NCBI GenBank assembly: GCA_034927635.1
Contig: JAYFPP010000215.1
Location: 6,868-70,867 of the forward strand
Length of the DNA stretch: 64,000 bases
Direction: 5' to 3'
Origin: Paludibacter sp.
GTDB lineage: Bacteria; Bacteroidota; Bacteroidia; Bacteroidales; Paludibacteraceae
Numbering within the stretch: position 1 is the first letter of the stretch; every line of letters begins with the position of its first letter. Both the position numbers and the translations under genes were made by a program. The notes beneath the pieces are model-generated. The model saw nothing but the letters and a program-made list of their open reading frames with translations, ran no database searches and was not told where the DNA came from. Below are positions 48,449 through 64,000 of this stretch, in pieces.

Positions 48449-50033
48449 CAAAAAGGGACAATTGATCATTTTGATTAATTGTCTCTTTTTCTTTTTGATC
48501 ATATTCATTTGGCTTACAGCACCTTAACGATACAAATTGATTAATCGACAGAGGTTCAATGTTGCCAACTTCTTTATTAAAAACAAAACCCATGGGATGA
48601 ATAACCTTCTGTATTCTCTTCTTCTCCCCAAGATCCGCTAACTCCCATATTTTGAGCATATTATTCCTGTATTTCAATCCATAATCTATGTATTTGGGTA
48701 GGTTCAATGACATATCATTAACCTTTTGCAATTCAGTCTCAATTATTTCTTTTTCATTTTCCAAATCAGCCAATTTCCTTGTGCAAGCTTCAACTTGTCT
48801 TTGATTGTTTGCAAAAGCCAAGTTGTCCTCAACTTGTTTAATATAACCTTCAACACTCGATAATTTACGCTTCAATAATGTCAGTTGCTCTGAGTCATTC
48901 TTTGTCATATAGGAAAAAGTTTTCTTCATTTGAATTTTCAATAGTTCTGTCAACTCACTTGACAATCCATAACTATTCAATATATCTTTATAAGATTGAT
49001 GAATATTCTTTGCAGCATTGTTTTGCTTACAACCTTTATTCCAACAAACATAATAATAAATCTCTTTATCGTATTTCTTTTTCATTTTAGTAGATATGGA
49101 GGCAGTCATATTTCGTCTACAGATTGGACATTTAATAGACCCAAGTAATGGTACCTCTGGTTTATACATTTTTACTTCATAGCCATTTGAATGACTAATA
49201 TCCAACAGTCCATTTGCTTTCAAAAAAATATCTTCACTTACAATTGCAGGATGATTTCCTTTAATTATCTCTCCTTTTAAAAAGTTATGACTCATGTATC
49301 CTGCATAGAATGGATTTTTGAAGAGTTCTGATAGCTTCTGCTTGTTTATGATGAAACCTAATTTTTCAAGTTTAATTCTGATTTCTTCATTACTAAGGTT
49401 CTGATTTACTTTCCAGTCGAAAGCCAGTTTAATCTTCTCCCCCTCTTCATTAATTGTAATTACTTGTTCCTTCTTCGTAGTTTTTTGATCATAACCCCTT
49501 GGTGCTTTGGCAATCCATCGTCCTTTTCTCAGTGCAGCAATGCTGTTGTCGATTGTAGTGTTTCTTTTAATATCATTATCTAATCTCGCAGTAGCAAGCT
49601 CCATATTCTGAATAAACTTTCCTTGTGCAGTTTTTGGGTCATAATTAGAGGTTGCAGATCGAACTTGTGCTCCTCTTTTTTCAACTTCTTCAATAATTGT
49701 TGTACTACCTGTACGGCTAAAACGGCTTGTCGAGTATACAATTACTGCTTTAATTGGTATTCTTGAATTATTGAGATAAGCAATCATTTTTGAAAACTCC
49801 TTTCTCTCTTTATCCGATTTGGCACTCTCAAATGTTCCTCCGAACCGTTCCAAAACTGTCATTCCAAGTTTTTCAGCATATTGTTCGCATTTTTCCATTT
49901 GCGTATTCAGGCTTTGACCATCCAACTGTTCCTTTGAGCTTACTCTATTATATATTATACAATATCCCCCAGCTTCCTCTTGTTCTTGAAACTTTCCCTT
50001 TGCAAATTTCTTTAGTTTATCATTCATAGTCAT
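48414..50033 (-). CDS. Large serine recombinase (integrase)
   Basis: [11 protein letters not shown] (catalytic Ser), ESAK, SRFSR, recombinase domain PRGY, Zn ribbon CPIC...YYVC...C, coiled coil. Confidence 0.93.
48451..48489 (+). terminator. Terminator for the tRNA transcript, lying inside the recombinase CDS
   Basis: AAAAGGGACAATTGATCA-TTT-TGATTAATTGTCTCTTTT; its two G-T wobbles pair only in plus-strand RNA. Confidence 0.75.
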
Positions 50034-50215
50034 TCATTGAGTTTGTTTTTAAAAGCTTTATATACAATAACTGAATAATCCCATATGAATTCAATTAGAG
50101 TTTCGATTTCTTCCTCATTTAAATCAGCAAATTGAGGCTGATTAATAATGTCCTGCTTTGTTAGCTTGTTTTGTAGATAAACTTCATAATAAACATCCCT
50201 TTCATCATTATACAT
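50030..50215 (-). CDS. Small acidic protein translationally coupled to the recombinase
   Basis: 61-aa ORF; its TGA overlaps the recombinase ATG (ATGA); upstream TACTTTTG at 50362-50369. Confidence 0.65.
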   Translation of the reverse strand: MYNDERDVYYEVYLQNKLTKQDIINQPQFADLNEEEIETLIEFIWDYSVIVYKAFKNKLNE

Positions 50216-50439
50216 TAAAATTGGATTTCTTTTTGTCCCGAAGAAAAAACACTCATTTTTAAGTGTCTAAATATTATAGTTAGAAAAAACTCAAATGTTT
50301 GTTTTTACAATACTATTAATCCAATCAAAATATTTAATATACTATATTTCATGATGTTATACAAAAGTACTATTTTCAGATGAGTTATTAATATGGAATA
50401 GATCATTTATCAACAACATAATATATCTTGCATAAATAA

Positions 50440-50472
50440 AAAAAACTACAGAATTAATTTCTGTAGTTTTTT
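50440..50472 (-). terminator. Terminator after the NADAR operon
   Basis: AAAAAACTACAGAA-N5-TTCTGTAGTTTTTT. Confidence 0.75.
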
Positions 50473-50499
50473 CATTTAAAGACACAAATCATTACAAAA

Positions 50500-50994
50500 T
50501 CAATTAATCAACAATACCCCCAAATCAAAAAACTTTCGTTCATTCAATTTGCTACGAAGTCTGTTCAGGTGTCCTATGAACTCTTTTCTGGTTAATAAGG
50601 TTTTGTCTTTTGCTGTTTTACCAATTCTATGAGTCAGTTTCGAATCACCGGATTCTTTCAATGCTTGTTTGAAATCTTCATTTGTAAATAATGCATCAAA
50701 AGCATTAGTGATTAAGTCTTCATACTCCGATGAGTGTCGTTTTATTATTTTATCTTTATAATAAACCTCCTGTTTTTCGTACCAGCTGAACTTATGACCC
50801 TTGTACCATGAGTCCAGACCGTAAGTTAGATACAGTTTTTGTTTTTCATTAAAATCATGTGTTCGTAAACTTCCAAAGAATGCTTCCATAGAAGCATAGC
50901 TTATACCATCAAAATCGAACTGGTATGGGTAAAGGTTGGATAAACTTTTTTCGAGGTTTTCACCCCTGAAGTGAATGTCAATTATATTTGTCAT
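50500..50994 (-). CDS. Phage T4 gp30.3-like NADAR family protein
   Basis: LSNLYPYQFDFDGISYASMEAFFGSLR...FKQALKESGDSKLTH.IG...KTLLTRKEFIGHLNRLR matches my recollection of the gp30.3 pattern (SNF...F..DG......EGFLQG.K...FRDAL..S....L.H......TILT..EF...L..LR). Confidence 0.72.
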   Translation of the reverse strand: MTNIIDIHFRGENLEKSLSNLYPYQFDFDGISYASMEAFFGSLRTHDFNEKQKLYLTYGLDSWYKGHKFSWYEKQEVYYKDKIIKRHSSEYEDLITNAFDALFTNEDFKQALKESGDSKLTHRIGKTAKDKTLLTRKEFIGHLNRLRSKLNERKFFDLGVLLIN

Positions 50995-51067
50995 ATTTTA
51001 CACTATTATTTTTTATTTATATAGTGCAGAATTTAGATGAAGTTGAATTAAAAGGTAATGAATTTTA

Positions 51068-52993
51068 TTACGATTGATAATTGACAACGCGATAATCTAA
51101 TCCAAGTCTTTTACATTTTCCGATTAACTGTCTAGACCCTTTACTTTCCCCATCCCAAAAGATAATAGCAGCGTTTGCATATTCTGCCATTTGGGTATTT
51201 CTAACGTGTCCCGCACCTCTACCCAATGACCAATCAGGTTTCATTATCTTAAGTAAATATCCTCTTTCATTAGCATAGCGTTCACCTTAAGTATCTGCTC
51301 CATTCGCACCTCCTGATACGATTTCAATATTAGTTTCACCTGTAAGAAAGTTATCACATTCATTACATAATAATTCGTAATCATCAAATTCACGACCACC
51401 TGCAATAATTACTTTCGTAGTAGTTTGATTGTGGAATCTATATTTGACCTGATTGTTCTCAACATAAATTTCTATTTTTTCCCCGAACCAAAATATATTT
51501 GAATGATTCAATAATTCAAAATTAATAGGTGGAATTGTATTTTGCAATAAAGCAAGTTGACACAGTTTTAAACACTTACCTGTCAAGTTCCGACCTTCCC
51601 ATGTACCAATATTATTTATCCGATTATGAAGTAATTGCTCTCCCTTCTCAAAAGTTGCATTTACATTTACCCCCTCCTGCAACAATCTTTTGATTAATTG
51701 CTTGTTTTTTGCAACTCTCAAACTCTTCAAAGTGCTATTTTTAGCTCCCCAAACCTGAGTAGTTCCACCAACTGGCATAAAACTGGTGTCTTCTATTATA
51801 TGAGCATCAATTGGTACCTGCTCAAGCATTTTTCTAAAATCATCATTACTATTTACCTTTTCCCACAATACCATAAGCATCCAATTGACATTGAATGTTT
51901 CCCAATCTTGACGAATATGATTGAAGGGTTCAATTGTTCTATTATTACCTCTGTATGTCTTCTTAAGTATATATCCTCCACCTTTAAAATTGGAGATTTC
52001 ATTCATAATCTCTACTGAACGAATATCTGGATTTGAATAACAACCTACCACATAAGCACTCTCGCTATCATTGAACTGTTTGTCAAATAAAATCATCGGA
52101 CATTTCACCATGTTACCAAAGTTTAGGAATTTTCCATTTCGGGTATCACCGTTATTCCGAAAAGACCAACAATTCTCTTTGCTTCCATCCAAAGAAGTCC
52201 ATTCATTGAGATTCAGATAATCCAGATTAAAATTGTTACCATTTTCAATAAAAGATTGTGATACATGATCTTTCTCTTCTATGTCAACAAGAACTTCATT
52301 GATAACATTATTCAGATGAGTATCATTGATTTTCCTTCTTTCAAAATTATCAATATAATGATATAGGTTCTGAATATCTATAATTGAATTTATTGTAAAT
52401 GTCTCACCATCTATTGACACGAGACCTCTGAATACAACTTCATGGTTCTGTTCAAAGAAAGCTCTTATATCAACATTCAGTATGTTTGCTAATAATTCAA
52501 GTTTCTCCAAACCAGGGTGATTATCCAATGAATTATCCAAATTTTGTTTGGTTGTATTGACAACCTTCAGTACATCCTTTATTCCAAGTCCTTTACTTGA
52601 AAGAATTTCATAAAACCGAACTTTTATTGAAGTTAGTGGTTGATTATTCGCAACTTCAGGTTGTGCAACTAATTTTTCAAGAAATAATTTCAGCTTATCT
52701 AAGTCAAAGAATGAACTTGTTTTTTGTTTTTTATGGATTTCTATTGTGATATATCCATATATTTCATTCTTTCTTTTGAAAAGTTCTCCAGGTTCGACAT
52801 TCAGACATTTAGCAATTCGATTAAGTGTTCTTAATGTTGGGTTGGCATTCAAACTATTATATAAATTCCCTTGTGTCAAGTAATTTTTTTTACCCATTTT
52901 CTTCCCTTCTTTAAGGTTGATTTTTCTAGCTAAATCAGTTAAAGTCATTTCTTTAACTTTAAGGAGTTCTTCTATTCTTAGATTTTTATTCAT
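51068..52993 (-). pseudogene. HTH-HTH-NADAR-SLOG(YspA/DUF2493-like) fusion interrupted by an in-frame TAA at 51287-51289
   Basis: Two XRE HTHs (NPTLRTLNRIAKCLNV, HPGLEKLELLANILNV); NADAR motifs (FGNM, SESAY, DWE, IIED...VWG, GRNLTGKCL); then KVIIAGGREF...IVSGGANGADT*GERYA...RNTQMAEYA...FWDGESKG, 72 further codons ending at TAA 51068. The 568-aa truncated product may still be made. Confidence 0.8.
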
Positions 52994-53112
52994 AAAATTA
53001 AATTTTGCTGTAAATATACCATTAATTAATCATATATAATTATTATATATCATTTGGAAATTTAAAACAACATCAAATCACTTATAGTCTAAATGCACTA
53101 AGGGTTCATTTA

Positions 53113-53442
53113 TTATCGAATTACAACTTGAGAAATCAATTTGAAATTTTCTGAATAATAATCAGGAAATCTCTGAATAAGTTTTCTTTCAATATTTGTT
53201 GACCTTCCAATAGTGATTATGTTCATTGAGTTTCCCTCATTTGAATATAACTCCCATGTCTTTTTATATTTCCAGACGAAGTAGTAACCTGATTTTGTAA
53301 AGACATTTGGATGTGGATTCACAATTTCTTTAATTGGTTTCATATCTGAAAATTTAAGAATCTGACTTTCATTAAATCTGCTCTTAACTGCATTTTCAAT
53401 TATCGCAACATGATTAAATGCTCCAACAGCATAATATCGCAT
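53113..53442 (-). CDS. Hypothetical protein (may extend 5' through a frameshift)
   Basis: 109-aa ORF; the frame is open upstream without an ATG. Confidence 0.5.
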   Translation of the reverse strand: MRYYAVGAFNHVAIIENAVKSRFNESQILKFSDMKPIKEIVNPHPNVFTKSGYYFVWKYKKTWELYSNEGNSMNIITIGRSTNIERKLIQRFPDYYSENFKLISQVVIR

Positions 53443-53591
53443 TATTGAAGCAATATTATGTTCTGGAGTATCCAGTCGGTTAGAGAAACTACGACCAAGT
53501 TTTCGAATTAATTGATATAATGTTTTTTTGACATGTGCTGCAATGCAACTTTTGTTGTGCTTGATTTTAATGTGTACATTCCTTTCATAAT

Positions 53592-53942
53592 TTATTTTTT
53601 AATTGTTTTTATTGAATTGTTTATTTCGATTGTAATTGAATATCTTTTCATATAACGATCAAAGTACTGAGGAGCATTAATAGTAATATCATAATTACCT
53701 TCAATAATTCTAATCCAGCTTGCCCAATTATATTCGTCCCCACCAAAGTTTGTTTGTGTTGCATGATTTCTTGCAATAGAATAGAATTCATGTATTTGGT
53801 CCCTGTTAAGACTTTCGATATAATACACAACCGTATCACCATATACTGCTGCGTGATTTGCAATATACCGTCCAAATAATTTGATGTTCGGTCTTTCACC
53901 AACTCCATTTTCACTGTCTGTTTCTTTAATAATTTGTTTCAT
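53592..53942 (-). CDS. Hypothetical protein
   Basis: 116-aa ORF co-oriented with neighbours, A-rich leader. Confidence 0.65.
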   Translation of the reverse strand: MKQIIKETDSENGVGERPNIKLFGRYIANHAAVYGDTVVYYIESLNRDQIHEFYSIARNHATQTNFGGDEYNWASWIRIIEGNYDITINAPQYFDRYMKRYSITIEINNSIKTIKK

Positions 53943-54081
53943 AAATTCTTGCTTTTAAATTGTTTGTAATAATAAGGAAGTAAGATTTCCCTACTCCCTG
54001 TTGTCTGCAAGGGAGTTCAATGATATCACAATTTATTGATACCCCGAGTGAGACGTTTAATGTATTAAGTCGGTAGTTCTG

Positions 54082-54915
54082 TCAAATCAAGCTCTTGTAT
54101 TCATTAAACCCATAAATCCAGAATTTATCAACTTCTTCCTTCATTTCTTGATAGTTACCCAATTCTATAATCTTATAAAATTTCTTTCGCTCATCCCAAT
54201 TAATGACATTATCTGGATTTAATCCGAAATCATTCAGGTTTTCATCAGGGTCAATCCCAACTGCAAAGAATAATTCTCCGTCAATCTCCCCAATATCAGG
54301 AAAATTGTAATCAATAAATTCAGACATTCCATTTCCAAGATATTTCATATTTACCCCCGAAATACCATTATCAACCAATACATAATTTTGGTTATATCTT
54401 AATATCGTATACGAATGAAAAGGTGGTCTTGTATCTATCATGAAATCCAACCTTATAAATAAATTGGGATGATCTATTGATAGAAATTCTACAAAATCAG
54501 AAATTCCTTCAGAAATTCGGAACTCACAATGATACAATGTATCTTTGATTATACGATTTTTCGAATCTTCGATTTCAAATCCTGATCCCCAATTTAGAAC
54601 GCACCAATCGTAGATTTGATATTCCCCAAACTCATCTTTCAATTCTTTACGTAATTGATTGTATTCTTGTTCGTTTTGACCGTTTTTATCTACGATTTCA
54701 ATAGATTCTTTACCGTTGCTACACCTTCTAAAAACCTTTTTGACTGGTTCAAATGACGAATCAAGATCATATTTCTTTATTTCTTCAGGAATCGGATAAA
54801 ACTTTTCCAACCTGAAATCCGAATCACCTTCTGAATTTAAGATTGAATAGAATTTATCCATATCCTCCTTACTCCCTTTAATTGTAATTAAATGATAATA
54901 TGTATTTCCTGACAT
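54082..54915 (-). CDS. YubB/DUF1281-like ferredoxin-fold protein
   Basis: N-terminal ITIKGS, FRLEKFYPIPEE and YDWCVLNWGS resemble the DUF1281 F....P.P and YDW...NWGTKW motifs. Confidence 0.55.
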   Translation of the reverse strand: MSGNTYYHLITIKGSKEDMDKFYSILNSEGDSDFRLEKFYPIPEEIKKYDLDSSFEPVKKVFRRCSNGKESIEIVDKNGQNEQEYNQLRKELKDEFGEYQIYDWCVLNWGSGFEIEDSKNRIIKDTLYHCEFRISEGISDFVEFLSIDHPNLFIRLDFMIDTRPPFHSYTILRYNQNYVLVDNGISGVNMKYLGNGMSEFIDYNFPDIGEIDGELFFAVGIDPDENLNDFGLNPDNVINWDERKKFYKIIELGNYQEMKEEVDKFWIYGFNEYKSLI

Positions 54916-55106
54916 AATATTTCCTTTCTTTTTAAATTTATTATTGTTTTATTTCTTGTTGAAAAACCGTTTATCCACCTATTGCAAATCCAACATATCA
55001 TATGTATTTATGATAAATCCTATTCACCTCTATGGATAATCCTTATATTCTTCAAATTTATATTTTATAAGTGCTTATTTATTAATTTCAAATCTCAATT
55101 ATTAAT

Positions 55107-55317
55107 CAAATGAAATTATTATATTCCATAACTATCAGATAGAAATTTCAAACAAAAAAGGTGTATCCATTTTGGACACACCTTCAGAACCGTGTATATT
55201 ACACGACTTACAAGTCTATCCATTTTTGTCTGAATTTTTTTTACTATTCATTTTCACTTTAATTTCACTTGTTCATGACCTAGGATTTGAACAAGTAGAA
55301 TTTATTATTGACCAATT
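55107..55317 (-). ncRNA. Candidate structured RNA/regulatory element, copy 1
   Basis: ~210-nt direct repeat of 56151-56361 with several hairpins and a terminator. Confidence 0.55.
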
Positions 55318-55358
55318 CTATTAGTCATTGCTTATTCAATCTGTCGACTGAATATTTT

Positions 55359-55949
55359 TTAAAATATATCTGATAATCTACCTTCTTTTATCTGTTTAGC
55401 ACTTTTATCAGCAACATAATTGTGATATTCATTCATTTTTAGAATATCTTCTATTGTTAGATTGTCGTTTATTTTGGTCTTATCTACTAAATAATAAATA
55501 GAACCAAAAATTATTTTATCAGATATCAAAATGATATTTTGACCAAACATAGGATTGAATATTTTGACCTTTTCAAATCCAATAAAATATTTCCACATGT
55601 CAATTAACTCTTCATTCAATTTACCACAATGATAAAATAATGAATTACGAACTCTTTTTAAATCCTTTTTATTTTTAGGATATAAAGTTGAAACATTCTT
55701 ATAAAATGAAACCATAATGTTGTCATTTACAGCATTAAACATAATACTTTTTTCTAAGTTAAATTTAGCTACTTTTATTCCACCTAATTCTGTAAGAATA
55801 TCCTTTAGCGTTACGTTTAAACCGATGGTTTTCACTGTTTTTTCGTTTGAACTATCATCACAAAATTCAATTTTGCATGTTTCGATATTTCCGCTTGACA
55901 ATTTGTCATTTGTACCCATAGTACTACATAATAAGTTTAATTTTTTCAT
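55359..55949 (-). CDS. Hypothetical protein
   Basis: 196-aa ORF lying between the two repeat copies. Confidence 0.7.
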   Translation of the reverse strand: MKKLNLLCSTMGTNDKLSSGNIETCKIEFCDDSSNEKTVKTIGLNVTLKDILTELGGIKVAKFNLEKSIMFNAVNDNIMVSFYKNVSTLYPKNKKDLKRVRNSLFYHCGKLNEELIDMWKYFIGFEKVKIFNPMFGQNIILISDKIIFGSIYYLVDKTKINDNLTIEDILKMNEYHNYVADKSAKQIKEGRLSDIF

Positions 55950-56150
55950 TTACAAATTTTTTATATTGATTAAAAACGATTGTCTTTTATTTGAAGGTGC
56001 ACAACCATTTACACCTTATCATTTTAATTATTATATCATCATGACATGATATAGGTTATGGTACTTAAATCTATGTGAAATAATCTGATTCTTTATATTT
56101 GTTGTTTACCATAGGTCTTTTGTCTTAATGTTCTTATATTTATTACATAT

Positions 56151-56361
56151 CAAATGATATTATTATATATCATAGTCTTCAGGTAGAAATTTCAAATAAA
56201 AAAGGTGCGTCCACCATGGACACACCTTCAGAACCGTGTATATTACACGACTTACAAGTCTATCCATTTTCATTTAAAATTTCTTTTTTTACAGTTCATT
56301 TTCTTGCAATTTTACTTGTTCAAGACTCGGGATTTGTACAAGTAGAATTTATTGACCAATT
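56151..56361 (-). ncRNA. Candidate structured RNA/regulatory element, copy 2
   Basis: Offset 1044 from copy 1; 54-nt identical core (56217-56270 = 55173-55226). Confidence 0.55.
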
Positions 56362-56479
56362 TGCATGCTGGTCGTAGATTATTCTATCTATCGAAAGAAT
56401 AAATCCTTTTACTTGTTAATTATATTCGTTTATGATAAACAATACAGAATTATCATATACAATAATTGACTTACTATCT

Positions 56480-56926
56480 TCAATGTAGATTAAACCTTAA
56501 ATTTTGAATTGGGTCTTCATATACAATTGAATTGATAATGTCAGTTTTTGAAATAACTGAAAACAGATTATTTTCAGTATTAATCCACTTCTTTACCACT
56601 TTCATAGTTCTTTCAACTACATTTTCAAATTTCACTGACTTTACAGTATCTACCACTTCTTCAATGACTTCATTTATCTTTTTACTAAAAGTTGATTTTA
56701 CAGTATCCCTATACAATCTTTTCAGTTCAAAAGAAGAAATCTTTGCATACATTACATTACCTTGAAACATACATTTAATCAAAGAAAAGATTTCAGTATA
56801 ATTCTTTACATTAGTGATTTCACACACGATTTCACCAGAATAAGATATTGTTACTATCTTATCGAATTGTCTAATTTCACAATCAGTTATTTTATACGTG
56901 ATTTTTGAAGTAATTCTTTTTTTCAT
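56480..56926 (-). CDS. Hypothetical protein
   Basis: 148-aa ORF co-oriented with neighbours. Confidence 0.65.
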   Translation of the reverse strand: MKKRITSKITYKITDCEIRQFDKIVTISYSGEIVCEITNVKNYTEIFSLIKCMFQGNVMYAKISSFELKRLYRDTVKSTFSKKINEVIEEVVDTVKSVKFENVVERTMKVVKKWINTENNLFSVISKTDIINSIVYEDPIQNLRFNLH

Positions 56927-57388
56927 ACTATTCTAATTTTAGTTATTAATATTCGTTTTTACCTTATATCCTATTGTTTTCAAAAAGTTGATGTTTCATA
57001 AATATTATTTTCAAAAAAATAGGGATACAAGTTTCTTTTTCAAACCGTATCCCTAGCTGTTGACCCATAATTGTGTCAATTCTATCCCGGTTCATATGTA
57101 AATTTATTATGAATCATTTTACTGAACATTAATCACTTACAATTAAGCAATTATGCATTCTTCTGATTTCATACTAACATTTTCATTCAATATCAATAGT
57201 TTTAAAAGTTTGTAAAAGCATCCCAGGTGGACTATCACAGTTGATCTGGGATTTTAATAATTAATAAATAATTAAACACAATTCTTAAGCTTGTGGGCCC
57301 CTGTCATTTCTCTGACAAGGGCACGTTATTTTTGTATGTATTATACAGATATATTCTGTATACTTATTGTCTAAATAAATAAATATTA

Positions 57389-58180
57389 TTATCCCTTTAA
57401 CTTTTCATTCTGTTTTGAAAACACAATAAAACTGAACAGGAAATTTAAATCTATGTCAGTTGTTATTGTGACTTCTTTGTTATTGTAATTAGTATAATAT
57501 ATTGTATTAGAATTATCATTTTCATCTGGACGACTATACAATTTTAATTCAAATCTATTTAATAGTTTATTTACTGAAGTTCTGAATCTTTCTAATATTT
57601 TTTCATTATCTTCATTATGTTCTTCATTATAAATAAATGATTCTTTATTATCAATAAATTGATGAACTATGAAATTAACATGTTCATTAACGATTTTCAC
57701 TTTACGATCCTTATCATCGTACCAAAATCCACGTAAATTAAAATAGATATCATTACTGTTATTATTGTTTTTTTCGCTTTTATGATTTTGCTGTACAACT
57801 GAAAATCCTTTTCTATTCATAAAATTATCAATTATTAAAATATGTTTTTCAAGATCTAAACGTTTATCAGCAATTTCATATACTATTTCATATGTTTTTT
57901 TCTTATTTTCTGAAACATAATACTTTAAAATGTCATTCACTTTTACCCAAAATTTTATTATAAAAGTTAACCATAAATCATAACCAAATTTTAGAAAATC
58001 AACACATATATCTTTCTTTTCAATATCATTAATAAAGGAATCAAAATCAATATTTCTTAGCATTTCAAAATTGATTAATTCAATTAAAGAATCAGATTTT
58101 AAACGAGAACTTTCTTCATTATTTATAATCGTCAAAACTTTTTGTTTCAATCCTTCAATTTCAGTCAACTTATTATTCAT
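57389..58180 (-). CDS. Hypothetical protein
   Basis: 263-aa ORF with a canonical promoter upstream. Confidence 0.7.
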   Translation of the reverse strand: MNNKLTEIEGLKQKVLTIINNEESSRLKSDSLIELINFEMLRNIDFDSFINDIEKKDICVDFLKFGYDLWLTFIIKFWVKVNDILKYYVSENKKKTYEIVYEIADKRLDLEKHILIIDNFMNRKGFSVVQQNHKSEKNNNNSNDIYFNLRGFWYDDKDRKVKIVNEHVNFIVHQFIDNKESFIYNEEHNEDNEKILERFRTSVNKLLNRFELKLYSRPDENDNSNTIYYTNYNNKEVTITTDIDLNFLFSFIVFSKQNEKLKG

Positions 58181-58244
58181 AATTTTTTCTTTTTTAATTT
58201 ACTATACTTTTATTATTTGTATACATTATATTGTAATTACGAAA

Positions 58245-58276
58245 CAAAGATAATACAAAAAATATTAATATGCAAA
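58245..58276 (-). promoter_or_regulatory. Canonical Bacteroidetes promoter TTTG-N20-TATCTTTG
   Basis: caaa at 58273-58276 and caaagata at 58245-58252 on the plus strand. Confidence 0.75.
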
Positions 58277-58573
58277 TATTTTTGAAATATTTTATACATT
58301 TATTTATTGTATACCATATATTCCTATTCTAAGACATACATATTACACAAATCATCAATTTGCACATATTCTTTAAAAATTGTAATGTGTGTTTCAATTA
58401 TTCACACCTAACATATTATTAATAAATTACTTATCATTTATTTCAACATTTTAATAGAAATGAGATTATTTGAAAAATTGACACAAAGAAGAGATTATTT
58501 AATTGATTTACTGATATAGTAGATATTTTTGTAAAAGATGATGATAATTCATGATTTTGGTAATACTACAATA

Positions 58574-58607
58574 AAAAAGCTACAAGATTATTTTCTTGTA
58601 GCTTTTT
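58574..58607 (-). terminator. Terminator after the resolvase
   Basis: AAAAAGCTACAAGA-N6-TCTTGTAGCTTTTT. Confidence 0.75.
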
Positions 58608-58635
58608 GAGAAAAAATTCTATATTGTACAAAAAG

Positions 58636-59247
58636 TTAAACACCTGAATATTTTTTTATCTTCGTCATTGTATTAATATGCACCCCAGCTAATTTAGCTG
58701 CTTCTGAATTTGACATCCCACGTTTAAGATATTCCATAGCTTTTTTGTTTTTGGGTTTGGAAAGAAATGTAATAACATCTTCTTTTGTACCTTGTTTTCG
58801 CCCCAAATAACTACCTCTTGCTTTCGCTATTTTAATACCTTCAAATTGACGTTCCAAAATCTGAGTGCGCTCCATTTCGCTGATGGTTGCAAGAATGGAA
58901 ATAATGAGTCTGGAAATAGGATTTTCTTTTCCATCATCGTTGATAGTGGTTAGTCCCTGATTGATAAAATAAACCGGTATCAAGTTTTGATTAAGATAAG
59001 ACAAGGTATTTAATATGTCCAACATATCTCGTCCCAATCTATCAATAGTAATAGCACTGATTTTACCAACAATCCCTTTTTCAATGTAGGTCATGATTTC
59101 TTTTCCACCTGTTCGTTCGAAAAAAGGGATTGCTCCGGAGCATTTATCTTCGACCACCAAATCATAATCTTTTTCAGTGATTCGCTGTCTATCTGTTTTT
59201 TGATCTAAAGTGGATACACGTGTATATAAAATACTGATTTTCTTCAT
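58636..59247 (-). CDS. Small serine recombinase (resolvase/invertase) with C-terminal HTH
   Basis: LYTRVSTLDQ...RQ, EDKCSG, TIDRLGR, EMER..ILERQ.EGI..AK.RG.YLGRK, HTH. Confidence 0.93.
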   Translation of the reverse strand: MKKISILYTRVSTLDQKTDRQRITEKDYDLVVEDKCSGAIPFFERTGGKEIMTYIEKGIVGKISAITIDRLGRDMLDILNTLSYLNQNLIPVYFINQGLTTINDDGKENPISRLIISILATISEMERTQILERQFEGIKIAKARGSYLGRKQGTKEDVITFLSKPKNKKAMEYLKRGMSNSEAAKLAGVHINTMTKIKKYSGV

Positions 59248-59394
59248 ATTTTTAGCTTACTATACTTTTAATCCTAATTTTGTGAGAAATACATGCTCTA
59301 TTTAATATTTTACTGATAACTTTATCCTTTCAATCCTCACAATTTCAACTCTACCCTATAATTGTGAGGAGTGAGATAAAATAATAAGGAGCAA

Positions 59395-59613
59395 CTACTC
59401 CTCATTATTTTTATCCTGACATTTCCGAAGGAATAAACTAAAAACATAACCTCTAGCTTGATGCACACTTACGAACCAAACTTCAGGTGAAACTAAATCG
59501 TGCGGGTCACAGTTCTTCATTTCTTCTAAAACAGGTAATAAATCAGATTTAACTATCTGTTGTAATTCCGTTATATATTGAGGATAGTACCGTATAAATT
59601 CAATTGCATCCAT
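59395..59613 (-). CDS. Conserved-type small hypothetical protein
   Basis: Start MDAIEF at 59613 sits one base after the upstream TGA; DPHDLV.P..WF motif. Confidence 0.6.
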   Translation of the reverse strand: MDAIEFIRYYPQYITELQQIVKSDLLPVLEEMKNCDPHDLVSPEVWFVSVHQARGYVFSLFLRKCQDKNNEE

Positions 59614-59614
59614 A

Positions 59615-59989
59615 TCAAATAACTTCTTCTTCACCTGTAAGTATATTATATTCCTGATTAATCCGTTCATTGTAATTAGGAACCAACTCAACATGATTGT
59701 CGATAGTATTAACCAATTCGTCGAAGTAAACTCCCTCAATCGTTTCTTTAACCATATCATCTTTATCAATTAAAAAGATGTCAAATAAATCTGCTCCTTC
59801 ATTATACTTAACTTGAACCATACCTTTGTGTTTAAAACCATTAACCGTGAATTTTAATCCCAGTTTTATCACCATCGGACGCTGAAATCCCCATGACATT
59901 AATATAGTTTTTTGGAATTTCAAAATTGAGTAGATGTAGTCAGCTATTTTTACATCTTCATCTAATAATTCTATTTTGCTCTCATCCAT
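59615..59989 (-). CDS. Bacteroidales mobile-element hypothetical protein
   Basis: Motifs SWGF, F.VNGFKHKG.V.V.YNEG.DLF, GVYFDELV..ID..VE, which I recognise from Bacteroides element proteins; start MDESK at 59989. Confidence 0.7.
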   Translation of the reverse strand: MDESKIELLDEDVKIADYIYSILKFQKTILMSWGFQRPMVIKLGLKFTVNGFKHKGMVQVKYNEGADLFDIFLIDKDDMVKETIEGVYFDELVNTIDNHVELVPNYNERINQEYNILTGEEEVI

Positions 59990-59994
59990 ACTTA

Positions 59995-61653
59995 CTATTC
60001 CTCCTTCCAAAGATTAGATTTAATTTTTTCTTCTTCACAATAGTCAATCACCTCATTAACTGTAGGATTACTTTTCGTGATTATACGATTGACAATACAT
60101 TTGGTGGAAATGTTCTCTATTTGTCCACCCGTTAAAGAATAGCTTTCTGCAATCATGTTAACTTCTCTCTCTTCCAAAAAATCAATCTTATTTTTCAGAA
60201 TAGATTTTACCGCTTTTATATCGGGATGTCCAATATGGATTTTAATAGTAAATCTGCGCAAAAATGCATTATCCAAATGCTCAACCATATTTGTGATTGC
60301 TATGATAATACCTTCATTTTTTTCAATATGTTCGAGGAGTACATTGATTATTGTTTGTTCAGTCATATCAGTTCTCTCTTGAATATCTGGATTTCTTCTA
60401 CCCATGAGAGCATCACATTCGTTGATCAGTAGAATTGGACTCATTTCAGATTTGCTACACAATAACTTGTAATCGTCAAAGATCTTTTTGACGTTTTTTT
60501 CAGATTCCGAGTACCATCTTGACCTAACTTGTGATAAATCAATCTGATATATATTGCGTTTAGTTTGTTTAGATAGCACTTCCACTATTGATGTCTTACC
60601 AGTTCCACTAGGACCATATAGCATTATCGAAATTCCTTCTGCTTTATTCCCTCTTTTCTTCATTTCCATTTTATATTCAGCAAAATTATCCTTCTGCAAA
60701 AGGGTTTGAATAATATTTAGTTCCCTTCGAATGTTAGAATTGAAAAACAACTTTTTTTCGGGTATTGAATCATGCTTTATATAATTGTGTGATGTCTCAA
60801 TCTCTGATTGTTTCTCACACTCTGTATTTCTTGTTTTATCATCAAGAAATAGTTCTTTTGCTTTTTCAGTTAATGTTAAGATAGTTTCATTTGACAGTTC
60901 CACCAACCCTTCTATTTGAATTTGAGTTGTCTTTTCTTTTAGTCTTTTCGTAAGCGATAAAACCTTAGAAGGTCCCAGAATATCAAAACCTATCATATTC
61001 AAATTAAGACTCTTTTCATTTTCAGTATATTTGTAAATCATATAATACATTATCAATCTATCCTTTACATCCAGGTCCAAAGACTTCATCGTCTTGATTT
61101 GAGTCAGGTTTTCATTCCTACTTTCTTGTTCAATAACTGAGTTCAACACATCTTCTCGTGATAGATGATTCAATAATTTGCGATTATTGATTCTGTACAT
61201 ATGTCCACAAAATTGAATGAAACTATACCCGTTTCCATACAATTTTTCAAATTGAATCTCTTCATTTCGAAACAACATATCTAATAGTTTCTGATTAACA
61301 GAAAATGAACTATTAAATAAATTATCTGATTTATCTTCCTTAATTTGCTTAATAAATCCCCTGTTTATTAGAACTTCAAGGTCGTTTTTGATATCAAAAA
61401 ACGACTCTATTTCCAGTCGAAGAAAATCAATCATTCGTTGTGATTTTACACGTTCCAGATCTTCATCAGTTGTAAAATTAAAAATGATTGAGAGCAATGC
61501 AGTTTGAATCTTAGATAGATTAAATAGTTCACACAGATATTTGAAAGCATTTTCCACCTCTTCGTCTGAACTAAATTCCAATTTCGATTTTCGACACTTG
61601 AAGAAAATGGATTTAAGGTGCTCAATAGTTGTCTTATGATTTATTTTATCCAT
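59995..61653 (-). CDS. AAA+ family ATPase
   Basis: Walker A GPSGTGKT, SRWYSESEKN, Walker B variant LLINECD, AITN...LDNAFLRRF, TGGQIEN. Confidence 0.9.
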   Translation of the reverse strand: MDKINHKTTIEHLKSIFFKCRKSKLEFSSDEEVENAFKYLCELFNLSKIQTALLSIIFNFTTDEDLERVKSQRMIDFLRLEIESFFDIKNDLEVLINRGFIKQIKEDKSDNLFNSSFSVNQKLLDMLFRNEEIQFEKLYGNGYSFIQFCGHMYRINNRKLLNHLSREDVLNSVIEQESRNENLTQIKTMKSLDLDVKDRLIMYYMIYKYTENEKSLNLNMIGFDILGPSKVLSLTKRLKEKTTQIQIEGLVELSNETILTLTEKAKELFLDDKTRNTECEKQSEIETSHNYIKHDSIPEKKLFFNSNIRRELNIIQTLLQKDNFAEYKMEMKKRGNKAEGISIMLYGPSGTGKTSIVEVLSKQTKRNIYQIDLSQVRSRWYSESEKNVKKIFDDYKLLCSKSEMSPILLINECDALMGRRNPDIQERTDMTEQTIINVLLEHIEKNEGIIIAITNMVEHLDNAFLRRFTIKIHIGHPDIKAVKSILKNKIDFLEEREVNMIAESYSLTGGQIENISTKCIVNRIITKSNPTVNEVIDYCEEEKIKSNLWKEE

Positions 61654-62184
61654 TTACACACTTTTATCCTTTATTAAATTCTTTGCTTGATTATTCATGC
61701 ACATCAATTGACGCATGACTTCGTGAAATAAATATTCATCATTTCCGACATTCAGATATAATAATACCCCTCCAATTTCTTCTTTACAAGGGATGAACTT
61801 TAAAACGCATTCGGTATAATTTTTTCGTTTTTCCTTTTCTTCAATGATTTCTGATATATATTTATAATATATAATATCATGTATTTCTGCTTTTAACAAT
61901 TGATTACTTATCAATAAGGGTGATTCCTTATCGTTGAGTATAATACTATACAGATAATGAGTAGTTAATAATGTGTATCCATTCCGATTAAACGATTCAA
62001 ATAAAGGATGCTCACCATCTTCCAATTTAATTGAATCTACCTGAAGGTTGTATAAACCTTCAGGGTTATATTCAAATATCACAGTCTTCTGATATCTGTC
62101 AATTCTGAATCTAATACGTTTGAATATTGACTCTACTGATCTGTGTTGTGTTATGTTATTGATGCTCATAATTATTGTTTTCAA
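61654..62184 (-). CDS. Hypothetical protein
   Basis: 176-aa ORF abutting the ATPase start. Confidence 0.65.
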   Translation of the reverse strand: MKTIIMSINNITQHRSVESIFKRIRFRIDRYQKTVIFEYNPEGLYNLQVDSIKLEDGEHPLFESFNRNGYTLLTTHYLYSIILNDKESPLLISNQLLKAEIHDIIYYKYISEIIEEKEKRKNYTECVLKFIPCKEEIGGVLLYLNVGNDEYLFHEVMRQLMCMNNQAKNLIKDKSV

Positions 62185-62223
62185 GTGTTTAATAAAACTC
62201 CTATAGTATAAGGTATCCTTTTA

Positions 62224-63399
62224 CTACAACATCTGGTCAACCTGATAAATTTTATTCAAATCTTTTGGATCAAAATAGAAGAAGTAAAGGTCCGTGATTT
62301 CAGACTTCGAACCACATATACTATTAATATAAGACGTATAATCAAAACCTTTTAGGGGAACAAATCCCACCTTCTTCACATTGTAAGTATTAGAGAACTG
62401 CACCATATCATCAGAAGTCATAAAATTGTATTCTTCCTCCAGAGAATTCACTTCACTTGATATTCGTTTTTTATAAACACCTCTAAAATCAAGTGCATTT
62501 ATAATAGTTCTGCTGAACTGACGGTGCATGAATAGATTTCGGAAATACAGGAACATAATATCCAATTCATTCTTCTTGCTGAATATATTACCTTTAATAT
62601 AATGTAGTGTTACATCTTCCTTTTTAATTGAAAGTTCAGGATAATGTATTTTGTTATGAAATACGGTGATATCTATTTCTTTTGAACTCCAGGGGTATGT
62701 TGTAAAATTAGGTAGTTCTATTTCATAACCCAATCCACTCAAATCATTTGTTTTGATTCTCCTTTTTGTTTCATATTGAAAACAATTGAGATAATCACGA
62801 GCAACCATATATTGCTGATTACATTTTTGGTAATCATATGAACCTACGAAAATAAATTGGTTCTTATCACATAAGGGTTCAAAAGCAGAGAGCACTTGAT
62901 TAGAGGAAAGCGAAAAGAAACCAAAACCTAGATTAGCTCCAAAATTGCATTCGATTAAAAGATTTATTGAAATTTTGGATTCCTCTAATAAAGCAGCGCT
63001 TCTCACTCCTTCACACCCAACATTAAATATGCGAAATGAATCATTTACAGTAATACATTCGAACTTCTCAATTCGATAATCAATCAAGATTAGGTTATTT
63101 ATTCCTTTTATAGAAGAATAGCGTTTTAATAGGTTTTCAGTAGAATCGATACCTGCAGCAAGATATACTGCATTTTTTATTTTTTCACCCCGCAATAAAT
63201 CCCGATTTAGGTTTTCAATATTACTTCGAAAATTAATATCAGAATTACGAACACATTTTGAGATGTAATTAAAGTCATGATAAACACCACTCTGATTATA
63301 ATACTTATCAGATTCATTATCTATAGCATTTCTCTTGAATAAGTTAAGAATTGATTTTTTAAAAGAATTTGTAGTTGTTTTAAATAGTTTGTTGGTCAT
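62224..63399 (-). CDS. Hypothetical protein (possible Rossmann/SAM-fold N-terminal part)
   Basis: 391-aa ORF; VYLAAGID and LILIDY weakly resemble methyltransferase motifs I and II. Confidence 0.6.
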   Translation of the reverse strand: MTNKLFKTTTNSFKKSILNLFKRNAIDNESDKYYNQSGVYHDFNYISKCVRNSDINFRSNIENLNRDLLRGEKIKNAVYLAAGIDSTENLLKRYSSIKGINNLILIDYRIEKFECITVNDSFRIFNVGCEGVRSAALLEESKISINLLIECNFGANLGFGFFSLSSNQVLSAFEPLCDKNQFIFVGSYDYQKCNQQYMVARDYLNCFQYETKRRIKTNDLSGLGYEIELPNFTTYPWSSKEIDITVFHNKIHYPELSIKKEDVTLHYIKGNIFSKKNELDIMFLYFRNLFMHRQFSRTIINALDFRGVYKKRISSEVNSLEEEYNFMTSDDMVQFSNTYNVKKVGFVPLKGFDYTSYINSICGSKSEITDLYFFYFDPKDLNKIYQVDQML

Positions 63400-63919: not shown

Positions 63920-64000
63920 AATATTCAGAGTGGAACGTACGTGATCTGGGTGACAACTCTTGTGTCTTCTCGATTAGCAACTACAACGAAGAGAAGTTAT
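63916..64000 (+). CDS. Partial ORF coupled to the XRE gene, 3'-truncated by the window
   Basis: ATGA overlap; MKYSEWNVRDLGDNSCVFSISNYNEEKL... open to the end. Confidence 0.5.
   Translation, partial: MKYSEWNVRDLGDNSCVFSISNYNEEKL

Follow-up and report, generated by a model that had tools for sequence, protein, structure and literature searches.

The two adjoining genes described here are best explained, in our moderately confident reading, as a self-contained, autoregulated and toxin-less de-ADP-ribosylation cassette that would shield nucleic acids from foreign ADP-ribosyltransferases (ARTs). Both lie on the minus strand of the window, by which we mean the whole stretch of 64,000 nucleotides that was analysed, and their features are collected in Table 1. 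The reading draws on the domain identities of the two proteins, on the conservation of the pair together with its 5' region, and on the absence of a recognisable ART nearby.

Table 1. Positions in the window of the two genes, their domains and the flanking signals
Feature	Position	Strand	Basis or remark
Operator-like inverted repeat ATGATATA-N9-TATATGAT (8-N9-8)	53029..53053	minus	-60 to -36 relative to the gene 1 start codon
TATATTTA, possible Bacteroidetes-type -7 box (TAnnTTTG-like)	53015..53022	minus	inferred from sequence
Gene 1 ORF as it stands	51287..52993	minus	568 codons, closed by in-frame TAA
HTH module 1, residues 1-110	52664..52993	minus	XRE/Cro-C1 HTH + beta-hairpin + helix
HTH module 2, residues 121-215	52349..52633	minus	internal copy of module 1
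Divergent NADAR-fold domain, residues 263-511 (~250 residues)	51461..52207	minus	structure model + Foldseek
SLOG N-terminal part, residues 521-568, up to GGANGADT	51290..51433	minus	YspA/YAcAr type
In-frame TAA, codon 569	51287..51289	minus	TTA (Leu) in intact alleles
Remaining 72 SLOG codons + natural stop	51068..51286	minus	same frame, without further lesions
Gene 2, gp30.3/AdfN-type NADAR, 164 aa, with E37, R44 and H122	50500..50994	minus	Pfam Phage_30_3
Terminator-like hairpin after gene 2	50439..50473	minus	15-pair stem + T run

Domains of the two proteins

Gene 2 had been predicted to be T4 gp30.3-like, and its protein matches Pfam Phage_30_3 (PF08010) at E 1e-27 (97 bits, cut-off 36) over positions 6-138 of the 138 in the profile, the C-terminal helix included. 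It is 28% identical to a T4-type (RB10) gp30.3, and 1461 phage records match. E37 aligns with E36 of T4, and the last-strand His122, of the phage type, is present; the position of T4 K43 is occupied by arginine in all six of the aligned Bacteroidia copies of gene 2. The catalytic Glu of NADARs is E88 in the E. coli C7 NADAR and E36 in AdfN, and the Lys at Glu+7 is essential in the characterised enzymes (PMC11543638, PMC11257639). The K95R mutant of the E. coli C7 NADAR is active in vitro and does not rescue cells (PMC11543638). AdfN, the gp30.3 protein of T4, is both necessary and sufficient against DarTG1 and strips ADP-ribose from DNA (PMC11257639, PMC11125620).

Gene 1 starts at 52993 and spans 52993-51068 on the minus strand, its natural stop included. 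It was originally described as a fusion of two HTH modules, a NADAR-like domain and a YspA-type SLOG domain; these domain identities hold, and what falls is the single intact reading frame, the window copy being interrupted within the SLOG domain by the TAA at codon 569. HTH module 1 matches Pfam HTH_26 (residues 6-75, E 1e-8), its secondary structure being taken from the AlphaFold model, and the BLASTP match between modules 1 and 2 (E 3e-7) points to an internal duplication. The module 2 region gives transcription-regulator matches in PHROGs, and its TTKQNL motif is almost invariant across the gene 1 family (alignment A1). Pfam YAcAr (PF10686) matches the SLOG domain at E 4e-15 (55.7 bits, cut-off 28.2) if translation is continued past the stop; the truncated ORF stays above this cut-off (E 2.4e-7, 30.9 bits). 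Foldseek matches of the SLOG part of the full-length model are to DprA, LOG and ShosA.

The stop codon is a natural feature of the gene. We rejected an assembly error, since the identical TAA is found in an independent MAG differing at 16 of 3186 bases and in locus L031, and since at least seven distinct sequences of the 568-aa protein are on record; the related loci that share the codon are L013 and L031. Recoding was rejected too: the natural stop of gene 1 is itself TAA TAA, and the listed ORFs of the island have ordinary lengths under the standard code. The truncated form is a common natural allele, intact alleles of 641 aa are present in related elements (L024 has one), and both circulate widely. 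The truncated product has approximately the extent of the many family members that never carried a SLOG domain, and within the gene 1 family this domain is optional.

The middle domain of gene 1 was more difficult to assign. Its matches to Pfam NADAR (PF08719) have E values of 0.004-0.08 (13.6-17.8 bits), below the gathering cut-off of 35.1 bits, and a sequence profile of the domain found no match among the PDB sequences, so that fold comparison alone succeeded. As the Foldseek search with full-length gene 1 was swamped by the SLOG domain, the middle domain was modelled separately (pLDDT 95). In the PDB this model matches two NADAR structures, 8BAU (E 3.6e-4) and 2B3W (E 8.3e-4), with E > 2 for every other match, and almost all of its matches in the viral structure library BFVD are NADAR proteins. 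Relatives also match the Pfam NADAR profile (21 of 29 at E <= 0.01, the best at 5.5e-12, and 59 of 79 at E <= 0.001 in a second count), which ties the domain of the window to the family by transitivity. Comparison of the profile of the middle-domain family with that of the gp30.3 family gives a probability of 25% over 27 columns, a motif match that is by itself unusable as proof of homology. Both proteins are of NADAR type, as had been proposed, gene 2 by Pfam and the gene 1 domain by fold.

E311 of gene 1 aligns with the catalytic Glu, corresponds to E37 of gene 2, and is invariant in the fused-NADAR clade (122/122). E401, which the model places in a predicted strand (398-402), is kept in 120 of these 122 diverse members and corresponds to the acidic residue of the last core strand in the YbiA type, as defined in PMC11125620. 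K344, R361, D363, K379, and N419 are conserved across the same set. The canonical phosphate-binding Lys at Glu+7 (K95 or K43) is absent; the residue is C318 in gene 1, and the position varies across the clade between L, C, I, M, and A. The invariant K344, R361, and K379 might stand in for the missing Lys. It had also been argued that the domain may be a sensor, on the grounds that it has QVWG where D..WG is typical. We consider this argument weak because a WG motif is entirely lacking from the T4-type gp30.3, whose T4 orthologue AdfN is active.

The clade of the fused NADAR is large, with hundreds of clusters, and most of its members have an HTH; HTH-NADAR proteins are abundant in the databases. 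Some members are fused to ARH, HAD phosphatase, PARG or cREC, which are ADP-ribose-processing domains, or to a second NADAR; a divergent and a canonical NADAR share one chain in P0019 and P0099. In 23-25 representative clusters, the same NADAR-like domain occurs alone, without any HTH.

Genomic setting and upstream region

The gene pair is carried by an integrated mobile element of a Bacteroidia genome, as originally suggested: a large serine recombinase lies at tRNA-Leu, the GC content changes from ~0.42 to ~0.28, and the element continues past the end of the window at 64000. The hairpin that follows gene 2 agrees with the earlier observation that the two-gene unit has its own terminator. Genes 1 and 2 are adjacent in the window and in L001, L002-L005, L006-L007, L009, L013, and L024-L027, with varying genes around them; beyond the window this amounts to five distinct genomic settings for the pair, each with a conserved 5' region. 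Each gene also has relatives that lack the other: gp30.3-like genes are found without gene 1 in L028 and L030, and gene 1 relatives without gene 2 in L008 and in a family with a single HTH. The fused-NADAR clade and the cassette are found in mobile elements and defence islands, with recombinases among the neighbours, and the cassette is confined to such settings.

The window had been described as having no recognisable DarT or other ART, and this holds for its island ORFs. Searches with Pfam, PADLOC, PHROGs, and NCBIfam recognised neither among them, and the last three returned nothing relevant to ADP-ribosylation. The Pfam gene tables of the related loci, in which many neighbouring genes have no Pfam match, likewise contain no ART.

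The inverted repeat upstream of gene 1 is found, exact or with one mismatch, at the same distance 5' of the gene in L001, L002-L005, L006, and L009/L010. Locus L008, which is without gene 2, has no such repeat, although its HTH2 motif is conserved. Within the window, the copy given in Table 1 is the sole zero-mismatch match to the inverted repeat, and the island has similar motifs in two more of its intergenic repeats (56149-56173 and 55105-55129). The block AATAAATA[T/C]ATTTAC.GCAAA..TTTAAT is conserved across loci, and conservation of the repeat and the next ~35 nt extends to L006, whose gene 1 protein is only 38% identical. With HTH modules and an inverted repeat over the gene's own putative promoter both present, the latter at a fixed position in five locus groups, the self-regulation that had been predicted for gene 1 is plausible as judged from the sequence. 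The conserved repeat could instead be a promoter element and not an operator.

Proposed function and alternatives

From these observations we infer that the proteins are catalytically active and on what substrate, that the operator is bound, that expression is inducible, and in which direction the conflict runs. For the gene 2 protein, the likeliest activity is hydrolysis of guanine-linked ADP-ribose in single-stranded DNA or RNA. The probable binding site of the gene 1 protein is the conserved inverted repeat of its putative promoter, so that this protein would set the expression of both genes. Its divergent NADAR, together with SLOG in the intact alleles, may act on a different ADP-ribose adduct or may form the ligand-sensing part; a division of labour between the two NADARs is plausible because NADAR subfamilies differ in base specificity (PMC12945103). 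Since no ART travels with the cassette, we propose that its targets are the adducts of foreign enzymes, the candidate sources being DarT1-like toxins of the recipient cell that hit the incoming element and transferases carried in by phages or competitors. Counting against this explanation are the missing Glu+7 Lys of the fused NADAR and the Arg at the same position of gene 2, the separate occurrence of gene 1 and gene 2 relatives, the 25% profile-profile match, and the possible promoter role of the repeat, which L008 lacks while keeping the HTH2 motif.

On a more speculative and rather unlikely reading, gene 1 could be an enzyme-sensor that drives an inducible ADP-ribosylation damage response on mobile elements, and the proteins of the HTH-NADAR clade could be general one-component responders. 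The gene 1 protein would then stay bound to its operator for as long as it encounters neither ADP-ribosylated DNA nor free ADP-ribose, and turnover or occupancy of the NADAR (and SLOG) would cause its release and induce both gene 1 and the AdfN-type eraser.

An unlikely alternative, on our analysis, is that gene 1 would be purely a one-component transcription factor, whose NADAR-like (and SLOG) part would bind a ligand without cleaving it and would switch gene 2 and perhaps other promoters of the island. Candidate ligands would be ADP-ribose, NAD-derived signals, or ADP-ribosylated DNA, and the Nudix domain of NrtR offers a parallel. The two HTH modules and the conserved repeat over the promoter, the similar motifs elsewhere in the island, and the loss of the phosphate-binding Lys from the gene 1 NADAR are all consistent with such a role, and SLOG-HTH fusions have been predicted to be ligand-regulated (Iyer et al., PMC9503650). 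However, the conservation of E311, E401, K344, R361, D363, K379, and N419 resembles that of an active site, and a domain that also stands alone without HTH, or fused to other hydrolases, argues against regulation as its sole function.

Somewhat less probable again is that the pair would be defence cargo serving the host, stripping from host proteins, RNA, or DNA the ADP-ribose put there by transferases, either those of invading phages, like T4 Alt, ModA, and ModB, or those of competing bacteria. The same defence logic was proposed by Iyer et al. 2022 for ART-less ARG-centred systems (PMC9503650). The lack of a recognisable ART nearby would fit this role, as would the neighbouring defence genes, which include AbiE, type I R-M, and GmrSD in L001, SIR2 and TIR in L006, type I R-M in L021 and L022, and an IetA-like ATPase within the window; the ARH and phosphatase fusions of the clade are moreover the partners of the published prediction. 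Yet the characterised enzymes closest to gene 2 have DNA as their substrate and serve phages in counter-defence (PMC11257639), and the substrates of characterised NADARs are nucleic-acid bases, not proteins (PMC11125620). The data favour neither side of the conflict as the beneficiary of the cassette.

It seems to us improbable that the two genes supply the antitoxin function of a toxin-antitoxin system, its ART having escaped recognition or lying elsewhere. In type II systems, HTH-bearing, autoregulating antitoxins are the norm, and the element extends beyond position 64000; a gene past the window end is one candidate for the ART. The other is a protein of 239-244 aa encoded directly upstream of gene 1 in L001, L002, and L006, which is 78-82% identical among these loci while their gene 1 copies are 38-85% identical to that of the window. 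Examined as a possible hidden ART, this protein has no match in Pfam, PHROGs, or the PDB sequences. Its gene is, however, missing from the window, L009, and L024, all of which carry the pair; no island ORF matches any ART or DarT model, and the single-HTH relatives have no conserved partner gene in the neighbourhoods examined.

Finally, it is very improbable that the genes have no role in conflict, being either decaying passengers, as the nonsense codon within SLOG might suggest, or, in line with the metabolic role of E. coli YbiA mentioned in PMC11257639, a commonplace regulator with an N-glycosidase that repairs metabolites as YbiA does, given that conservation across loci is strong for both gene 2 and the NADAR domain of gene 1, that the cassette keeps to mobile elements and defence islands, and that the truncated allele persists as at least seven distinct sequence variants.

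Comparison with known systems

Gene 2 resembles AdfN and the orphan phage NADARs in its Pfam family, catalytic Glu, phage-type His, and C-terminal helix (PMC11257639, PMC11125620), and like AdfN it is an orphan on a mobile element with no adjacent DarT recognised. It differs from AdfN in residing on a Bacteroidia integrative element rather than in a T4-like phage, in having Arg for Lys43, and in being tightly paired with a DNA-binding second NADAR and a putative regulated promoter of its own. Orphan NADARs have so far been a phage story, that of AdfN, and the cassette would extend them to the chromosomal integrative elements of Bacteroidia. DarTG1 also employs a NADAR-type protein, which reverses guanine ADP-ribosylation, and some DarT1-linked NADARs have nucleic-acid-binding capacity (PMC11543638). 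In contrast to DarTG1, no DarT was recognised in the window's island or in any neighbourhood that was inspected, and the fused NADAR lacks the Lys and has the YbiA-type last-strand Glu where DarT1-linked NADARs have Asp.

The architecture had been thought undescribed. In part it is not: Iyer, Burroughs, Anantharaman, and Aravind in 2022 predicted NADAR-SLOG and SLOG-HTH fusions in phages (PMC9503650), and the cassette is therefore a variant on a known theme. Gene 1 shares with these fusions the vocabulary of NADAR, YpsA/YspA-type SLOG, and HTH, and the proposal that SLOG is a sensor or second-step enzyme for ADP-ribose derivatives would apply to it as well. Unlike the published fusions, gene 1 joins all three domains in one chain with a duplicated HTH, and its setting is an integrative element in the chromosome, where a second NADAR gene adjoins it and a conserved operator-like repeat precedes it. 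For this exact combination of HTH-HTH-NADAR-SLOG, second NADAR, and operator-like repeat, we found no description in the literature searched.

The cassette also draws attention to a sizeable and so far unstudied clade of NADARs that are fused to an HTH and lack the canonical lysine. Should these proteins be active, they would widen the catalytic make-up of NADARs and probably their substrate range; if they are regulators, they would be transcription factors of a new, ADP-ribose-responsive type. The alleles of 641 aa and 568 aa, which circulate side by side, provide a natural test of what SLOG contributes. NrtR, a Nudix-HTH regulator that senses ADP-ribose and controls genes of NAD metabolism, likewise joins a DNA-binding domain to an enzyme fold that recognises ADP-ribose, and may serve as a model for ligand-controlled repression. 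It differs from gene 1 in having a Nudix fold instead of a NADAR, in the order of its domains, and in its targets, which belong to NAD metabolism and not to a mobile-element cassette.

Gene 1 and its NADAR-like domain

The original prediction described gene 1 as a fusion of two XRE helix-turn-helix (HTH) modules, a NADAR-like domain and a SLOG domain. As a whole this observation holds, and the domains are supported by Pfam, by the internal duplication and by the structure model, in which each HTH is followed by a β-hairpin and a helix; the reading frame, however, is not intact, as a TAA at codon 569 interrupts the SLOG domain. On the Pfam NADAR profile the middle domain scores only E 0.004-0.08. 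A profile of this domain built from the window and five related loci retrieved 265 representative clusters at E <= 0.001, and Pfam NADAR is matched by 21 of 29 aligned relatives (best E 5.5e-12) and by 59 of the 79 multidomain members of the clade formed by these relatives. Modelled alone, the domain reaches a pLDDT of 95, and its only significant PDB neighbours are 8BAU (Phytophthora NADAR-ADP-ribose complex, E 3.6e-4) and 2B3W (E. coli YbiA, E 8.3e-4), the next standing at E 2.6; searched against a viral structure library, the model finds NADAR proteins near-exclusively. Since only NADAR structures match and the relatives match Pfam NADAR, its identity as a NADAR is confirmed at the level of modelled fold and transitive sequence links, below the curated Pfam threshold.

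Seven residues (N294, E311, K379, W415, G467, N469 and G472) are invariant across 122 clade members, eight more (Y314, K344, R361, M372, F386, E401, G416 and N419) are each present in 120 or 121, and D363 is kept in 113. E311 corresponds in alignment to the catalytic Glu in gene 2, and the last core strand contains E401, the arrangement of YbiA-type NADARs (PMC11125620). Seven residues beyond the Glu, where a Lys would be expected, gene 1 has C318, and this position varies within the clade. This looks like a conserved active site in which the phosphates would be held differently. We give little weight to the suggestion that QVWG in place of D..WG marks a sensor, because the T4-type gp30.3 used in the alignment has no WG motif at all and its T4 orthologue, AdfN, is active. 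The gene 1 NADAR is probably active; a role in sensing only is possible.

Of the 121 clade members in which the domain is complete, 91 extend at least 80 residues beyond it at the N-terminus, and the 79 multidomain members include 33 with HTH_3, 25 with HTH_26, 13 with ADP-ribosylglycohydrolase (ARH), about 10 with HAD phosphatase, two with cREC and one with PARG domains. A single-HTH form of ~370 aa is abundant (362 clusters in one search) and is found at island edges, adjoining type I R-M systems, integrases, resolvases and WYL proteins; the neighbourhoods examined hold no conserved partner and no recognisable ADP-ribosyltransferase (ART).

Features of the gene pair, its relatives and its element (window positions unless a locus or residue range is named)
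Feature	Position	Strand	Remarks
HTH_26	gene 1 residues 6-75, frame from 52993	-	Pfam
Second HTH module	gene 1 residues 121-215		internal duplicate of first module, E 3e-7
Linker after HTH modules	gene 1		low model confidence
Middle domain	gene 1 residues 263-511		~250 residues
YAcAr SLOG	gene 1 residues 521-641		
In-frame TAA, codon 569	51289-51287	-	inside GGANGADT-x-GERYA
Gene 2 ORF, 164 aa	50994-50500	-	Pfam Phage_30_3 over whole profile, E 1e-27
Inverted repeat ATSATATA-N9-TATATGAT	-60 to -36 from gene 1 ATG		-59 to -35 in L006
Gene 1 relative, 85% identical	L001		SLOG present
Gene 1 relative, 66% identical	L002-L005		no SLOG
Gene 1 relative, 38% identical	L006/L007		no SLOG
Gene 1 relative, 66% identical	L009		
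239-244-aa protein	L001:9145-9864; L002:9143-9877; L006:4127-4861		directly upstream of gene 1
109-aa ORF	53113-53592	-	upstream of gene 1
277-aa ORF	54082-54915	-	
Weaker motif copies	55105-55129; 56149-56173	-	within 55087-55242 and 56131-56286
Small serine recombinase, 203 aa	58636-59247	-	resolvase/invertase type
AAA ATPase, 552 aa	59995-61653	-	PADLOC IetA models, E 3.7e-28
Two ORFs	61654-62184; 62224-63399	-	no assigned identity
XRE HTH protein, 111 aa	63584-63919	+	

The SLOG stop codon and gene 1 alleles

The 72 codons that follow the TAA stay in frame and are free of lesions. Codon 569 is Leu in intact relatives, and TTA in L024, a syntenic element whose gene 1 protein is 95% identical. 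We rejected an assembly error, as the TAA is also present in L013, an independent MAG with other host DNA at its flank (16 mismatches in 3186 nt, 99.3% identity), and in L031, whose 568-aa product (P0350) departs from the window protein at 22 residues. The distinct sequences of the 90% cluster, at least seven of 568 aa and three of 641 aa, interleave as a mosaic; most substitutions fall in the HTH-linker part, few in the NADAR domain. Most of the family (P0005-P0017, ~490-540 aa, P0015 being a 357-aa fragment) lacks the SLOG and ends just past the NADAR domain. The recurring TAA alleles and the SLOG-less relatives thus indicate that the SLOG is an optional add-on and the truncated form a common, tolerated allele.

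Between the window (50500-52993) and L024 (5004-7495), the gene 2 proteins are 84% identical (69 of 164 codons differ). This contrast with gene 1, together with the mosaic alleles, indicates that parts of the cassette are reshuffled by recombination. In L017:2884-8107 (MAG INTA.CYC.039), the last 99 nt of the contig exactly match the codons for residues 486-518 of gene 1 (window 51438-51536). Just upstream, a Mu-like transposable element ends; judged by eye, its ORFs encode a 686-aa transposase-like protein, a 208-aa P-loop protein and a CI-like repressor ending in a LexA/S24-type peptidase domain. Probably the element has inserted into gene 1 in some cells of this population, or the assembly branches there.

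The pair, its putative control region and its element

A gene 1 relative is followed directly by a Phage_30_3 gene in L001, L002-L005, L006/L007, L009, L013 and L024-L027. Relatives come from MAGs of Paludibacter, Bacteroidales, Bacteroidia and Sphingobacterium. The surroundings differ: varied small ORFs lie upstream, and downstream are AbiEi/AbiEii, type I R-M and GmrSD (L001), SIR2 and TIR proteins (L006) or an integrase (window). Gene 2 copies are 69-84% identical to that of the window, even in L006, with its far more divergent gene 1. The exceptions are L008 (gene 1 without gene 2) and L028 and L030 (gene 2 relatives without gene 1). P0019 and P0099 carry a divergent and a canonical NADAR in one chain, which gives independent support to a functional link between the two types. 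The 239-244-aa protein, 78-82% identical among L001, L002 and L006 and absent from the window, L009 and L024, matches no family and no PDB sequence; it is a possible third partner. L024 has an intact 158-aa protein, and the 109-aa ORF represents the last two thirds of it; further upstream the frame in the window stays open, but its N-terminal part has diverged and lacks a start codon.

At the DNA level the window resembles L012, located where L001 is, from 53053 (60 nt before gene 1 starts) to 50564 (within gene 2). The inverted repeat is present in the window, L001, L002-L005, L006 and L009/L010, and was sought in L008 and found absent. The conserved block after it contains a TAnnTTTA box, which we take to be close to the Bacteroidetes -7 consensus, and the TTKQNL motif of the second HTH is nearly invariant. 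No terminator-like hairpin separates the genes, and one stands after gene 2, in agreement with the predicted two-gene unit with its own terminator. We infer that a promoter with a putative operator, to which the gene 1 protein would bind, drives both genes as one transcript. The weaker motif copies, which include the central TAATAAT, sit in duplicated ~156-nt intergenic elements ~200 nt upstream of ORFs at 54915 and 55949, and may mark co-regulated promoters.

From ~48.4 kb to the window end, G+C drops from ~0.42 to 0.25-0.31. A tRNA-Gly/tRNA-Leu pair stands at this boundary, with a PorU-like host gene to its left and a large serine recombinase (539 aa) whose 3' end overlaps tRNA-Leu, and all genes at 50030-63399, mostly small ORFs without family match, are on the minus strand. 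This places the gene pair near the integrase, at one end of an integrated element that continues past the window. The element also holds the second, small recombinase. Its IetA-like ATPase and the two ORFs just upstream may form a defence system. The 111-aa XRE protein, transcribed divergently from the long minus-strand array, is similar to the first HTH module of gene 1 and its relatives, with 42% identity to the copy in L008 and a weak match to the window copy; it may be the element's switch regulator. Among the few upstream ORFs common to different elements is the 277-aa ORF, related to two L002/L003 proteins (36% over 108 aa; 26% over 255 aa), one with a weak DUF1281_C match.

Gene 2 and the likely role of the pair

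The predicted likeness of gene 2 to T4 gp30.3 is upheld by its whole-profile Phage_30_3 match. Its hits among phage records number 1461, most of them T4-like, with identities of 26-41%. In alignment with the T4-type gp30.3 of RB10, gene 2 keeps E37 (T4 E36) and the last-strand His, H122, and is thus a clear member of the gp30.3/AdfN family. The T4 K43 position is Arg (R44) in gene 2 and in all five related Bacteroidia copies aligned. AdfN, formerly gp30.3, is necessary and sufficient against DarTG1 and strips ADP-ribose from DNA, and its E36A and K43A mutants are inactive (Johannesman et al., PMC11257639); the E. coli C7 NADAR carrying K95R works in vitro yet fails to rescue cells (Schuller et al., PMC11543638). 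The Arg therefore puts the efficiency or specificity of gene 2 in question.

The pair is most likely a mobile-element cassette that erases ADP-ribose, regulates its own expression and has no recognisable toxin partner among the element's ORFs in the window; gene 2 would be the AdfN-type enzyme, and gene 1 would supply a regulator that binds DNA and contains a further NADAR. No paper on NADARs fused to an HTH, or on NADARs carried by integrative or conjugative elements, came up in our literature search. The cassette could benefit either the element, facing DarT-like defences of a recipient, or the host, facing transferases that come in. The NADARs characterised so far remove ADP-ribose from guanine in DNA and RNA, and some of them also from cytosine (PMC11125620, PMC12945103). 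NADAR/SLOG/Macro fusions occur in DNA viruses, alongside sporadic SLOG-HTH fusions, and ART-less de-conjugating enzymes have been proposed to target the adducts of an enzyme that comes from outside (Iyer et al. 2022, PMC9503650).
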